Below, one piece after another: positions 21,703 through 26,779 of a DNA stretch of 64,000 bases (positions within the stretch are counted from its first letter, which is position 1; every line of letters begins with the position of its first letter). The stretch is from Verrucomicrobiota bacterium (GTDB lineage: Bacteria; Verrucomicrobiota; Verrucomicrobiia; Palsa-1439): positions 10,938 to 74,937 of the forward strand of contig VHCW01000004.1 in the NCBI GenBank assembly GCA_016871575.1, written 5' to 3'. The notes below the pieces were generated by a model. It made no database searches. It saw nothing but the letters and a program-made list of their open reading frames with translations, and was not told where the DNA came from. The translations under genes were made by a program, and so were the position numbers.

Positions 21703-23259
21703 ATGGCACTTTCCAAACGCGAACAACGCCTGAAGTTTCTCGATTTCACCGAGCGCGACGCGGCGCTGCTGCAGGCGTTGCGCCCCATCGTGGAGCGGCA
21801 CGCCGAGTCGCTCGCGGACGGTTGGTGCGCGCTGCTGGAGTCGTTTCCGGAAACCGCCGAGATCCTGCGCGCCCGCACCAGCCGGGACCGGCTGACAGGG
21901 CTGTTCCGCCAGTATTTGTTGGAACTGACCGAAGGACAATTTGACGAGGAGTATTTCGGGCGGCGTCAACGCCTCGGCCACACGCACGAACGCATGGGGC
22001 TGTTGCCGCGCTGGTTCTTGCTCGGATATCCGACGCTCTTTCGCCGGATCGTGGCGTTGATCCGCCAGGAGGCCGGCGACTTGGGGGACGACACGATCGT
22101 GGCGTTGGAAAAAGTGTTCATGCTCGACGCCTCGCTGGCTGTGGACGCCTACATTGCGAGCGACCGCTATCGCCGGATGCAGGAGTTGGAGAGCATCATC
22201 AATGATTCCGCCGATGCCATCTTTACCGTGGACGCTGAGAAACGTCTCCGCTCCTGGAACCGCACTGCCGAGCAGGTCTTCGGCTGGACCGCCGGGGAAA
22301 TCATCGGCCAACCCGTCCAGCGCCTCGTTCCGCCGGACCTGCTCGCCGCCGGCGAACTCGAACAGATTGACCAGCGTGTTGTCAAGCACGGCCACCTCCA
22401 CATGGAAACCATCCGCCTCGCCAAGAACGGCCGGCGCGTGGCCGTCGAACTGAGCATCTCCGTGTTGCGCGACCCGCAAGGCGATTCCATCGGCCGCTGC
22501 GTCATCCTCCACGACATCACCGAGCGCAAACGCCTGGAAGAAGCCAAGCTCCAAGCCGAACGCCTCGCCGTCATCGGCGCGATGTCCGCCAAGCTCGCCC
22601 ACGAAATCCGCAACCCGCTCAGCTCGATCACGCTCAACCTCGCCCTTGTCGGCGACGAGGCCGCCGCCCTCGCCGAGGCCGAGCCGGCCGCCACCGCCGA
22701 GATGCGCACGTTGCTCAGCGCGATTGATTCCGAGGTGCGCCGCATCCAGCGCGTGACCGAGGACTATCTTCAATTCGCCCGGATGCCGAAACCGCGCCGC
22801 GACCGCGTGGCGCTCAACGACCTGTTGACGCAAGGGCTTTCGTTCCTCCAGGGTTCCTTCGACAACGCGCACATCACGGTCCAACATCGCCTCGACCCGC
22901 TGTTGCCGGCGGTGCACGGCGACGAGGCCCAGCTTTGGCAGGCCATTCTCAACCTCATCCGCAACGCCATGGAAGCCATGCCCGCCGGCGGCACGCTGAC
23001 GTTGACCACGGCGCGCAAGGAAAACAGCGTCTCCCTGGCCGTCAGCGACACCGGCAAGGGCATGAACGCCGACGAACAACAACAACTCTACAAACCCTTT
23101 TACAGCACCAAACCGAGCGGCACCGGCCTCGGCCTGCCGTTGACACAGCAAATCATCGCGGAGCACGGCGGACGAATCCATTGCGAGACGGTTCCCAATC
23201 GTGGTACTACTTTCCTCATCGAACTGCCCGTTGCCGACGCTCATGCCGCACAAAGCTGA
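21703..23259 (+). CDS. globin-coupled sensor histidine kinase (sensor globin-PAS-HisKA-HATPase)
   Basis: [10 protein letters not shown]...[20 protein letters not shown] globin with proximal His; PAS ([16 protein letters not shown]); [24 protein letters not shown]. Confidence 0.92.
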
Positions 23260-24589
23260 CATCCTGTTGGTGGACGACGAAGAAGCCCTCTGCGTCGCCG
23301 CCGAGAAAATCCTCCTCAAGGAAGGCTACCGCGTCACCTGTGTCCACACCGCCGCCGAGGGACTTGACCGCTTTCAGCGCGACGGCGCCGATCTCATCAT
23401 CACTGACCTCGCGTTGCCAGATCAGGACGGCCTCACCGTGTTGCGCCGGGCCAAACAACTGCGCGCCACCGTCGAGGTCATCGTCATCACCGGCCACGGC
23501 ACTGTCGAGAAAGCTGTCGAGGCCATGCGCTTGGGCGCTTATGATTTCATCGAAAAACCGCTCGACCGCGGCGCCCTGCTGAAAGCCGTCGCCAAGGCCG
23601 TCGAAAAACAGCGTCTCACCGCCGAAAATCTCCGGCTGCGCGATGCCCTCGAACAAATCCGCGGCGAAGAAGCCCTCATCGGCAACAGCGCGCCGATGCT
23701 GGCCGTGAAGAAACTCATCCGCCAGATCGCTCCCACCGATGTCAGCGTCCTCATCCAGGGTGAAAGCGGCACCGGCAAGGAAATCGTCGCCGACGCCATC
23801 CACCTGCTCAGTTCCCGTCGCGACAAGCCCATCATCAAAATCAGTTGCGCCGCCATCCCCGAGACACTGCTGGAAAGCGAACTGTTCGGTTACGAACGCG
23901 GCGCGTTCACCGGCGCGGCCAACACCAAGCCCGGCAAACTCGAAGTCGCCGACGGCGGCACCTTGTTTCTCGACGAGATCGCCGAGATGAGCACGCCGCT
24001 TCAGGCCAAACTGCTGCGTGTCCTTCAAGACGGCCGGTTCCAGCGCCTCGGCAGCACGCGCGACACTCAGATTGATGTCCGCATCATCAGCGCATCCAAC
24101 GTTGACATTCCTCATGCCATTGCCGGGAAGATGTTTCGCGAAGACCTCTACTACCGGCTCAACGTCGTCCACATCAGCCTGCCCCCGTTGCGGGAGCGGA
24201 CCGACGACATTCCGCTGTTGGCCAATCATTTCCTCCAGAAATACGCCGCTCGAATGCGGAAAGATGTCCGCGCCATTGCTCCCGCCGCGCTCGACCAACT
24301 CTTCGCCCACCCGTGGCCCGGCAACGTCCGCGAACTGGAGAACGCAATCCAACGCGCCATCGCTGTCACGACCGACGCCACGATCTCCAGTTTCATCTTG
24401 TGCGCGCCGCTGCCCGGTCTTCACGGCAACGGTTCGAGCATCACCGTGCCGGTTGGCACGACGCTGGAAAAAACCGAAGAGCGACTCATCGCCGAGACGC
24501 TCGCGCTGTGCGATGGCGACAAGGAGAAAGCCGCCAAGATGCTCGGCGTCTCCAGCCGCACCCTCTATCGCCGCTCTGCCAAGTCCTGA
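23243..24589 (+). CDS. NtrC-family sigma54-dependent response regulator
   Basis: REC (LVDD, TD, EKP), GESGTGKE, GAFTGA, LFLDEI, WPGNVREL, Fis-type HTH. Confidence 0.96.
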   Translation: MPHKADILLVDDEEALCVAAEKILLKEGYRVTCVHTAAEGLDRFQRDGADLIITDLALPDQDGLTVLRRAKQLRATVEVIVITGHGTVEKAVEAMRLGAYDFIEKPLDRGALLKAVAKAVEKQRLTAENLRLRDALEQIRGEEALIGNSAPMLAVKKLIRQIAPTDVSVLIQGESGTGKEIVADAIHLLSSRRDKPIIKISCAAIPETLLESELFGYERGAFTGAANTKPGKLEVADGGTLFLDEIAEMSTPLQAKLLRVLQDGRFQRLGSTRDTQIDVRIISASNVDIPHAIAGKMFREDLYYRLNVVHISLPPLRERTDDIPLLANHFLQKYAARMRKDVRAIAPAALDQLFAHPWPGNVRELENAIQRAIAVTTDATISSFILCAPLPGLHGNGSSITVPVGTTLEKTEERLIAETLALCDGDKEKAAKMLGVSSRTLYRRSAKS

Positions 24590-24644
24590 CGCGGTCCTCT
24601 CCTTTGACGGACACACGATCTTCCTCCCCTTGACTCATCACCGC

Positions 24645-24686
24645 TGTCCGATAACTTTGAGACGATCGTCTCAAGGTTATCGAACA
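24645..24686. repeat. 42-bp palindrome immediately downstream of the PaaX-like gene
   Basis: TGTCCGATAACTTTGAGACGA|TCGTCTCAAGGTTATCGAACA, two mismatches. Confidence 0.9.
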
Positions 24687-24687
24687 A

Positions 24688-25470
24688 CTATGTTCCCGCC
24701 AGTTCCACGAACCGCAGCGCCAGCAAACGGCGCAAGCGCAGATGCATTTGCCGGACATCTGCGCCCCGGTATCCTTTCGGCCAGAGCGAACGAGGCAACA
24801 ATGGGTCAAGCGAAAATGCCGATTGATAGACCCAGCGCTCACATCGGGCCAACGCCGCAAGACGCCCCAACTCACGAATGGCTGCCGCCGGATTACCAGT
24901 CAACGAAGGATGACGAAGATACTCCTCGTGCCGGTGCCCGATCCGTTTCCAGTCCCACGCACTGGCCACGACCTCTGCCGTGGTGCACAGGAACAATTCC
25001 CGCGCGGTAAATCCGCAGAAACACTCCGGCACGCCTTCCGCGTCCACGATTTCCTCCAGAATCGCCTCCAGCGAGTGCGGCCAAATCCAGACGCTGCGCT
25101 GCAACAGCCCCAATTTACGGGCGCGCAATGCGCGCCAGAGAATCTGGCGGTCCTTGCGCCGCACTTCCGGCAGATCGAACGTCACCACCCGCCACGCGCC
25201 ATCCCACGGCGTGTCCCACGAGGCTGTCGGATCATCCACTTGCGCCCGGCACACGCCTTCCGCCGTGATCCGGTAGGTCGCGTGCAGACCACTGCCGGTG
25301 CGCTGCAGAAGTTGGTGTCGCTCCAGTTCGTGGAACAGCGCGCGGCTTTCCCCGCGGTGCTCATACTCCTCATATCCTGCCAGCAGGTTGTTGAACGTGG
25401 GACGCGAGAGTTTGTCCATCGTCCAGAGGAACAGATCCAAGACCTCTGCGTAGTTCAAGCGATGTTTCAT
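24688..25470 (-). CDS. PaaX-family transcriptional regulator (wHTH + Cas2-like fold + PaaX C-terminus)
   Basis: YRITAEG, WDGAWRVVTFDLPE, LGLLQRSVWIWP, AWDW, DPLLPRSLWP; GAAGGGG RBS. Confidence 0.88.
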   Translation of the reverse strand: MKHRLNYAEVLDLFLWTMDKLSRPTFNNLLAGYEEYEHRGESRALFHELERHQLLQRTGSGLHATYRITAEGVCRAQVDDPTASWDTPWDGAWRVVTFDLPEVRRKDRQILWRALRARKLGLLQRSVWIWPHSLEAILEEIVDAEGVPECFCGFTARELFLCTTAEVVASAWDWKRIGHRHEEYLRHPSLTGNPAAAIRELGRLAALARCERWVYQSAFSLDPLLPRSLWPKGYRGADVRQMHLRLRRLLALRFVELAGT

Positions 25471-25512
25471 GTCCCCTTCGTATCGCGGCGCGCATTTCCA
25501 AGCAAGCACGAA

Positions 25513-25554
25513 GCGTCAACTATTTTGAGACGACCGTCTCAAAATAGTTGACGC
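25513..25554. promoter_or_regulatory. perfect 20-2-20 palindrome upstream of the PaaX-like gene (candidate operator or recombination site)
   Basis: GCGTCAACTATTTTGAGACG-AC-CGTCTCAAAATAGTTGACGC. Confidence 0.85.
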
Positions 25555-25606
25555 ACCTGATTGCGCCGTTGCTGAAATGACAAATAACTTCGGTGTCGTT
25601 GCCCGA

Positions 25607-26779
25607 CTACTTCTTCTTCGCCGGTTTATCCCAGCCGCGCGCCTTGACGATGCGATCCACGTCAGCCTTCGGCCCAAACTCGGCGGGAACAAAACCGAAC
25701 TTGACGAGATACTGGAAGTTGCGGAACGCAACCATCACTTCGTCCTTCCTGGCTGTGATCTGGTCGTCAGGCAGCTTTTTCAAACCTGCGGTGTATTGAG
25801 CGAGCAGTTGCTCGGCTTTGCGGCACGTCGGCTCGTCCTTCTCATAAACAAGCGATTCGGCAAGCCGCCATGCTTGCTCAACCGAACCGGCCGTCATTTT
25901 GGCGGCATCGTCGCGCACTTGGGCGGCGATTGTCTTGCGCATGGCCATCGTCTCCTCCACGCTGAGCGGACCGCGAATGCCTTTTTCCGGTTTGCGCGGC
26001 GGCAGCGGCTGATACCAGATGTTGCGGAACCGGACCGGGTTGCCGTGATCCTGCAACCGCAGCGGCGCGCTCTCCGGCAACGGACCGGGTTTCGAGCGCC
26101 CACGATGTCCCGTGGGACCTTCGAGTTGCGTCTTGTTCTGCACCAACACGCCGTTGCAATACACCGTGACGTAGCCGGGATCCACGCACTTGTCGCCCTG
26201 GTAAATCGGCCGGCGGAACGTGATGTCAATCTGCTGGAACTCGCCCGGCGGACGCAGCGCGTTGGCCAGCGGCGGCGCGACGCCATACATCGAACAGGCG
26301 CCGCCATCGGCGTAGGTCGGGTTGTTGTAGCTGTCGAGCACCTGGATTTCGACGCCGCACAGGAAAATGCCGCTGTTACCGCGTCCTTGGCCTTCGCCGA
26401 CTATTTCTGTCGGCGCAGCCCATTCGACATGGAGCCGGCAATCGCCCAGTTTCTCCTTCGTGCGGATGTAACCCGACTTCGGCACGCATTCCATCGCGCC
26501 GTCGCGCACAATCCACTTCGTCGGGGTGCCGTCCTTGTCCGATTCCCATTTTCCGAGCGACTCGGCTGTGCCATCGAACAACACAATCGCTCCGCGTGGC
26601 GGCGGCGCCGGCTTGAACGGCTTCGGCTCGACGCGCGGCGGCAACGGGCGGTTCCGGTCGTGGACGCACCACGGGTGGCGGTCATCAGGCGGGTCGCCAT
26701 AGAACGCCAAGCCGGCTGGCGCAGCGTAACCGGTGGCCGTGGCAATCAACAGGGAGGCAAAGATGAATTGAGCTTTCAT
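25607..26779 (-). CDS. DUF1080 (3-keto-disaccharide hydrolase) domain protein with helical C-terminal extension
   Basis: Signal peptide; LFDG, LHVEW, GNSG, EIQVLD, LQDHG.PVRFRNIW. Confidence 0.9.
   Translation of the reverse strand: MKAQFIFASLLIATATGYAAPAGLAFYGDPPDDRHPWCVHDRNRPLPPRVEPKPFKPAPPPRGAIVLFDGTAESLGKWESDKDGTPTKWIVRDGAMECVPKSGYIRTKEKLGDCRLHVEWAAPTEIVGEGQGRGNSGIFLCGVEIQVLDSYNNPTYADGGACSMYGVAPPLANALRPPGEFQQIDITFRRPIYQGDKCVDPGYVTVYCNGVLVQNKTQLEGPTGHRGRSKPGPLPESAPLRLQDHGNPVRFRNIWYQPLPPRKPEKGIRGPLSVEETMAMRKTIAAQVRDDAAKMTAGSVEQAWRLAESLVYEKDEPTCRKAEQLLAQYTAGLKKLPDDQITARKDEVMVAFRNFQYLVKFGFVPAEFGPKADVDRIVKARGWDKPAKKK

Follow-up and report, generated by a model that had tools for sequence, protein, structure and literature searches.

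A PaaX-family gene bracketed by two related palindromes in a lake Verrucomicrobium: a putative self-contained regulator cassette

Introduction

PaaX, the phenylacetyl-CoA-responsive repressor of Escherichia coli and Pseudomonas, is represented by the E. coli structure 8A39 and by the Pfam families PF07848, PF20803 and PF08223. In PMC9493321, the E. coli PaaX operator is given as TGATTC(N27)GAATCA, a dyad of 39 bp, and PaaX is described as a negative autoregulator of its own promoter. Two further PaaX-like structures, those of Rv0674 of Mycobacterium tuberculosis (3KFW) and of a Jannaschia protein (3L09), are uncharacterised.

A different kind of partnership between a protein and a palindrome is that of the REP/REPIN repeats and the RAYT proteins, the latter being HUH/Y1 transposases, while REP sequences are arranged as inverted doublets and reach high copy numbers, in the range of tens to hundreds. 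These systems share with the locus presented here a protein gene that stands between copies of a palindromic repeat of its own, the occurrence of extra intergenic copies of this repeat, and the presence of several protein/repeat families per genome.

The present analysis concerns a PaaX-family gene in the genome of a lake Verrucomicrobium (5.19 Mb, designated G000), located within a stretch of 64,000 nucleotides that is referred to below as the window and to which all coordinates without a contig label apply. The encoded protein resembles PaaX in fold and domain order, and a 42-bp perfect dyad at the start of its gene is close in size to the 39-bp operator reported for PaaX in PMC9493321. A full-text literature search returned no description of PaaX-like genes bracketed by palindromes.

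The PaaX-family gene and its product

The gene (24688-25470, minus strand) encodes a protein of 260 amino acids and ends with the stop codon TAG at 24688-24690, while the alignment of homologues places its start at the ATG at 25470 and not at a GTG at 25509. The leader or promoter region that separates this ATG from the upstream palindrome (25471-25512, minus strand) is 42 nt long, with AAGGGG preceding the ATG; a simple scan for sigma-70-type promoters, which may not cover the promoter type of this phylum, returned none in 24400-25800, and no RNA run that contains the locus was found. According to Pfam and the gene calls, the same-strand upstream neighbour is a 3-keto-disaccharide hydrolase/DUF1080 gene (25607-26779, minus strand; PF06439, E 1.5e-34), beyond which an epimerase gene is found, and the convergent neighbour is an NtrC-type sigma-54 activator gene (23231-24589, plus strand); both are considered to lie outside the unit. 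The cassette adjoins a region (21703-24589) in which a protoglobin-PAS histidine kinase gene is followed by this NtrC-type activator gene, and the two look like a globin-coupled two-component pair. The first-pass annotation, made from the sequence, had reported that no phenylacetate genes lie nearby, which is borne out by a Pfam scan of the nine neighbouring ORFs: none could be assigned to a phenylacetate-pathway family (and two gave no Pfam match at all), so that no paa genes stand next to this PaaX-like gene.

The protein is composed of a winged-helix-like N-terminus, a Cas2-like middle domain that contains the FDLPE...RR helix (residues 99-117), and a putative helical C-terminal domain. Pfam searches returned PaaX_M (PF20803; E 1.7e-16, 60.5 bits against a cut-off of 24) and PaaX_C (PF08223; E 0.0013, 19.5 bits, under the cut-off of 22), the latter family being present in some homologues, and these two were the only families matched, with no hit to any transposase, HUH, recombinase or nuclease family. 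The N-terminal winged helix family PF07848 gave no Pfam match at E <= 0.01, and the corresponding region is modelled as helices and a beta-hairpin with a pLDDT of 51-73; the AF2 model of the protein has a pLDDT of 82.8, the first 80 residues being its weakest part. The best Foldseek matches of this model are 8A39 (E 1.1e-8, 272 columns), 3KFW and 3L09, with Rv0674 (3KFW) giving the best superposition (TM 0.61/0.67), while Cas2 chains match the middle domain with a probability of 0.98. A profile of 41 homologues aligned to E. coli PaaX (8A39) with an E of 1.4e-9 over residues 41-244, and this alignment extends through the DPLLP..L.P motif of the C-terminal domain, whose retention suggests a ligand-responsive regulator. 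The names of the homologues place the family in the Verrucomicrobiota.

The two palindromes

The upstream palindrome (25513-25554) is a perfect 20-2-20 palindrome, GCGTCAACTATTTTGAGACG AC CGTCTCAAAATAGTTGACGC, the arms of which (25513-25532 and 25535-25554) are 20 nt long and 100% complementary across a gap of 2 nt. It is located 52 nt past the DUF1080 stop codon and 42 nt before the PaaX-like ATG. The first-pass annotation had described this palindrome correctly and had put it 43 nt from the start codon; the distance is 42 nt because homologues begin at ATG 25470. The downstream palindrome (24645-24686) consists of two arms of 21 nt (24645-24665 and 24666-24686) with no nucleotides between them and with two mismatched pairs, i.e., 90% (19/21) complementarity. 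It lies between convergent genes, 1 nt past the PaaX-like stop codon, exactly as had been claimed.

Both palindromes contain the core TTTGAGACGAYCGTCTCAA, and a 19-mer common to the two (24656-24674 and 25524-25542) differs at a single base. Their inner part reads TTTGAGACGA(T/C)CGTCTCAA, such that the inner 10 nt of each half are alike, whereas the outer arms are unlike (GTCAACTAT as opposed to CGATAAC in the downstream palindrome), each being self-complementary. A palindrome search recovered the common core and the differing yet self-complementary arms of the earlier description. The core TTGAGACGNNCGTCTCAA occurs twice in the window against an expectation of 0.01, and none of 100 shuffles reached two occurrences. 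In the complete genome it is found at six places, two of them at this gene, and a reversed control at none; the core is a rare repeat, which is contrary to the case that the first-pass annotation had named as refuting its view, namely an abundant repeat without a link to PaaX genes. A 38-40-mer of the upstream palindrome recurs at G000:C6:4878 and C46:22216.

Arms of 20 bp had been regarded as unusual for a simple operator. This view was not upheld, since PMC9493321 gives a length of 39 bp for the operator of E. coli PaaX, and long arms are therefore normal for the PaaX family.

Flanking palindromes of paralogues and homologues

The G000 genome holds 15 PaaX-like genes that are 30-66% identical to the one described here (tblastn), and 118 long palindromes. 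Approximately 70 of these palindromes are low in G+C and fall into about 12 families, each with its own outer arms and its own inner core, e.g., GAGACGATCGTCTC, GGAACGATCGTTCC, GAAACATATGTTTC, TGTTATAATTATAACA, GCTACATATGTAGC and GTGAAATAGGTATTTCAC. Seven of the 15 paralogues carry palindromes of the same family on both sides, two on the downstream side only, two on the upstream side only, and three carry none, while the remaining one (on contig C85) has just weak core-like sites on both sides. Self-complementarity extends through the central bases of the dyads in most families (CGATCG, CATATG, TAATTA, CAATTG).

To cover the wider family, the flanks of 91 distinct homologues from G000, 11 related genomes and metagenome contigs were scanned under uniform criteria, and both flanks were readable for 86. 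Palindromes were present on both sides of 33 of these genes, upstream only of 17, downstream only of 13 and on neither side of 23, so that at least one was found at 63 of the 86; flanking palindromes, which the first-pass annotation had proposed to look for among homologues, are thus a feature of the family. The central 20 nt of upstream and downstream sites were scored against each other for 32 pairs, every one of which agrees at 15 or more of 20 positions. Among 400 random G000 genes that served as a control, a palindrome was found upstream of 8, downstream of 10 and on both sides of 4, in windows of 170 nt as compared to 200 nt in the main scan. The upstream palindrome lies 33-56 nt from the start codon in the 18 closer homologues that possess one, and the downstream palindrome starts within ~13 nt of the stop codon in nearly all pairs. 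PaaX-like genes are patchy and multi-copy in their distribution, being found in 12 of 41 genomes, four of which hold 15, 9, 14 and 5 copies.

Palindromes flanking other paralogues also front neighbouring genes at C79:16634-16673 (a divergent fucosidase gene), C59:11539-11588 (a TAT-signal Gfo/Idh/MocA oxidoreductase gene in the same direction) and C36:28002-28037 (a divergent ABC ATPase gene), and these bracket sites could control the neighbours as well. Two further types of repeat were observed in the genome. A G+C-rich (70-80%) palindrome of 44-54 nt, GCCGCGTCACC...GGTCACGCGGC, is unrelated to the PaaX-linked families and lies within called ORFs (G000:C5:24565, C5:30528, C5:31641 and C29:24335). 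A short intergenic repeat family, TTCGTGCCTGACTAC...GTAGTAAGCCACG, occurs at G000:C136:2068, C136:2739 and C37:20516, with a similar stretch beside the solo palindrome at C13:4858.

Co-variation between protein residues and site bases

Every column of the protein alignment was compared with every half-site position for the 67 homologues that have a flanking site. The first helix of the Cas2-like domain (FDLP-E102-VRRKDR-Q109-ILW; modelled helix 102-117) carries both of the strongest signals, and they share one of its faces. When position 2 from the dyad is G (ACGnnCGT), as in the sites of 41 genes, residue 102 is always E, and in none of the 26 genes with A at this position is it E, a rule that holds for 67 of 67 genes. 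Residue 109 varies with base 6, the pairings being K/R with G, Q/L/S with A, M/I/V with T, and Y/F with C. In protein-DNA contacts, the usual partners are cytosine for glutamate, guanine for lysine, adenine for glutamine and thymine for aliphatic side chains.

On a tree built without the co-varying columns, residue 102 and base 2 change six times each, and these changes coincide. Three independent pairs for residue 102 are located on well-supported branches, a number too small to reach significance alone, and for two of the classes of residue 109 the independent-pairs test gave a median p of 0.03. For the outer positions 14-20, the best correlation, though a weaker one, is with winged-helix residues 40-47 and 79. 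Co-variation of the palindromes with winged-helix residues, as suggested by the first-pass annotation, is accordingly seen in weaker form and for the outer positions, the strongest signals being found in the Cas2-like helix instead. Because residues 102 and 109 track bases 2 and 6, it is most likely that the PaaX-like protein binds its flanking sites as double-stranded dyads.

In the profile alignment, the FDxPE...RR helix is placed against an unrelated stretch of 8A39. Furthermore, the inner core is conserved in this family, whereas the E. coli operator as given in PMC9493321 has 27 unspecified bases there. On these two grounds we infer that the present family reads the whole dyad and that classical PaaX reads only the outer boxes. 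Additional differences from PaaX are the 15 paralogues in one genome and the bracketing of genes by sites on both sides.

Conservation, gain and loss of the cassette

The congener G001 contains an orthologue with 93% protein identity at the same place and with both palindromes, and orthologous cassettes are conserved in position in G001 and G003. Apart from its central base, the upstream palindrome is unchanged in three orthologues, while the surrounding spacers diverge. The downstream palindrome occurs in these three orthologues in three versions, which differ at positions 8-10 from the dyad and are each self-complementary or nearly so, in agreement with the proposal of the first-pass annotation that symmetry is conserved rather than sequence.

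An empty site between the NtrC and DUF1080 genes, which the first-pass annotation had proposed to look for in relatives, was found on a contig of 1429 nt from run X10. On this contig, the counterparts of window positions 24580 and 25607 are separated by 12 letters of different sequence, and the whole block of spacers, both palindromes and gene (24581-25606, 1026 nt) is absent. Compared with the window, 6 differences were counted in its flank of 266 nt and 61 in that of 694 nt, while the flanks of G001 are 83% and 80% identical to the window, i.e., G001 is more distant than the X10 contig. As the cassette is present in G001 despite this greater distance, its loss in the X10 lineage would be the simpler reading of this single contig. 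As all 1026 nt are missing from the contig of the closer relative, the cassette behaves as a discrete block. The corresponding gap in G002 was considered as a second empty site and rejected, as it holds 683 nt of unrelated sequence with neither a palindrome nor a PaaX relic. In G003 the NtrC and DUF1080 neighbours are on different contigs, and a related palindrome lies ~500 nt from the DUF1080 orthologue with no gene between. G003 has the cassette of the C59 paralogue, in place of which G001 has unrelated DNA of 1.27 kb.

The first-pass annotation had envisaged a self-contained unit with hairpins as its ends. The architecture and the gain and loss of the block agree with such a unit; cleaved hairpin ends found no support, as the protein matches no recombinase or nuclease family and the co-variation indicates reading of duplex DNA.

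Solo palindromes

Each palindrome family that flanks a paralogue is also present at 3-12 other intergenic places. Solo sites with the exact arms of this gene have a GH5 gene on one side and a ThuA-UxaC-SDR set on the other or, in another case, stand before a set that comprises a gene of unknown function, a PfkB gene and an epimerase gene; their position near sugar-acid genes would suit a sugar-acid regulon. When all families are taken together, 8 solo sites lie between convergent, 7 between divergent and 30 between tandem genes, as compared to 213, 368 and 1093 such intergenic regions in the genome, with 11 further solo sites within called genes being left out of this comparison; the sites thus occur in background proportions and show no preference for promoter-bearing intergenic regions. 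They often lie close after stop codons. The genes that face them are mixed, and include those for RNase HII, threonine synthase, BipA, Ppx/GppA, CoaX and cyclophilin as well as glycosidases and oxidoreductases. The background proportions and the mixed genes weaken the reading of the solo sites as a simple regulon and keep alive a reading in terms of a REP/RAYT-like system (see below).

Fourteen solo sites were compared between G000 and G001. Three (C46:22216, C79:12534 and C12:11572) are absent from collinear G001 flanks, the extra stretches in G000 measuring about 33, 80 and 207 nt. The site at C46:22216-22253 is absent from G003 too, and its two genes overlap as ATGA in both G001 and G003; the insertion has split these overlapping genes, such that the end of the upstream HAD-hydrolase ORF has come to lie within the palindrome. 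The site at C79:12534 follows a conserved stretch that we take, from the alignment, to be tRNA-like. Another three sites (C13:17602, C72:21890 and C26:6302) are present in G001: C13:17602 is identical at 44 of 44 positions between flanks that differ at many, and C72:21890 exhibits symmetric changes in core and arms. The flanks of the other eight are not collinear in G001, where gene order differs, and are uninformative on gain or loss; this may reflect rearrangement at the sites or assembly breaks in the fragmented G001, as repeats may break an assembly.

Two perfect palindromes (G000:C17:42572-42611 and C46:15888-15937) combine the inner core of this gene with other outer arms (TGTAAACTCT), a version that flanks no paralogue in the G000 assembly, and one of the two sits between convergent KdtA and DegP-like genes. 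The solo site at C17:42572 was considered as the relic of a lost cassette and rejected, since relatives have 0.86-2.2 kb of other sequence at this place, with no PaaX-like gene or palindrome.

Proposed mechanism and alternative explanations

The explanation that we favour, and hold to be probable, is that of a self-bracketed, autoregulated repressor cassette of the PaaX family, in which recognition of the centre of a 40-bp dyad falls to the Cas2-like domain and to which solo sites would add reach. On the evidence of sequence and models, the protein would bind the ~40-bp dyads on both sides of its own gene as a symmetric dimer, its Cas2-like middle domains sitting over the dyad. The first helix (residues 102-117) would read the inner half-site GAGACG, with E102 predicted to contact the C:G pair at position 2 and Q109 the A at position 6, and the winged helices would read outer boxes at a distance of ~15-19 bp from the dyad; against this, the outer arms of the two sites differ, so that the winged helix cannot read both equally. 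Negative autoregulation would most likely be the role of the upstream site, which precedes the ATG by 42 nt, even though the simple scan showed no sigma-70-type promoter there, and the downstream site at the stop codon would most likely be a second operator. Because it lies between convergent genes, the downstream site cannot be the operator of a downstream promoter; it may be a roadblock or insulator that stops transcripts arriving from the convergent gene, or it may take part in looping. The outcome would be a compact, self-contained regulator cassette that could work wherever it lands, and the solo palindromes may put other genes under the same protein, candidates being the GH5/ThuA-UxaC interval and the PfkB-epimerase operon.

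The observations on multiple copies could also be explained by a selfish or symbiotic system of the REP/RAYT kind, in which the palindromes would be mobile, the PaaX-like protein would recognise them and promote their copying or retention, and the gene with its two palindromes would be the master copy, any regulation of the host being incidental. Each paralogue is indeed flanked by its own palindrome family, which is also found at 3-12 other intergenic places, but these are low copy numbers when set against the tens to hundreds reported for REP sequences, and the sites are single perfect dyads rather than inverted REP doublets. The solo sites are distributed in background intergenic proportions, often near stops and beside unrelated genes, and three are absent from collinear G001 flanks; however, some are conserved between species, the inserted stretches (~33, 80 and 207 nt) are unlike one defined element, and no target-site duplication was seen at the three insertions or at the ends of the 1026-nt block, which, together with the lack of a match to a transposase family, also leaves the locus without these traits of an IS element or MITE. 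Similarly, the cassette as a whole is an indel in relatives and the family has a patchy, multi-copy distribution (12 of 41 genomes), while orthologous cassettes stand at the same place in G001 and G003 and identity among the paralogues of the genome does not exceed 66%, so that no recent gene copying is apparent. The flanked protein has the fold of PaaX and, in Pfam, matches no HUH/Y1 transposase of the type found in the RAYT systems described, nor any recombinase family; its apparently retained C-terminal domain suggests a ligand-responsive regulator, and the co-variation of residues and bases points to double-stranded reading. In view of these differences, we regard a REP/RAYT-like origin as rather unlikely. 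It is also unlikely, in our estimation, that PaaX-like proteins and their private palindromes form a protein/repeat partnership independent of RAYT, in which the Cas2-type reader would spread or protect its own dyads and the bracketed gene would be the heritable core.

DNA looping is a special case of the regulator reading, in which protein molecules at the upstream and downstream sites, separated by 868 bp, would join into a tetramer and enclose their own gene. In favour of it, the gene stands between two sites whose inner cores are identical, and paired sites recur in 33 of 86 homologues, and yet 30 of the 86 have a palindrome on one side only and the outer arms of the two sites at this locus differ; looping is accordingly judged to be improbable. 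That the palindromes are protein-independent RNA or DNA hairpins, i.e., terminators or 3'-end stabilisers whose linkage to PaaX-like genes is incidental, appears highly improbable. Each would fold into a 20-bp stem, and many palindromes lie just past stop codons, including between convergent genes, but neither palindrome of this locus is followed by a T-run and none of three terminator-like matches is one of the two palindromes, although one on the minus strand overlaps the outer edge of the upstream palindrome. Moreover, self-complementarity to the very centre of the dyads is not needed by a hairpin loop, each palindrome family is tied to one paralogue, and residues of the protein co-vary with bases. 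A repressor cassette that reads and is bracketed by its own dyads is therefore retained as the preferred explanation.

Conclusions

The co-variation described above offers what would be a readable rule of protein-DNA recognition, in which a helix of a Cas2-type domain reads the centre of a 40-bp dyad, and it does so in a large family that databases label as phenylacetate repressors and that has no phenylacetate link at this locus. Free-living Verrucomicrobiota carry as many as 15 copies per genome of a site-gene-site module whose proteins are full-length and include the putative C-terminal domain, and the solo sites can be traced between species as gained, lost or kept symmetric. If the proposed binding is correct, these cassettes would constitute compact, orthogonal repressor/operator pairs and would provide a test case for the spread of operators.
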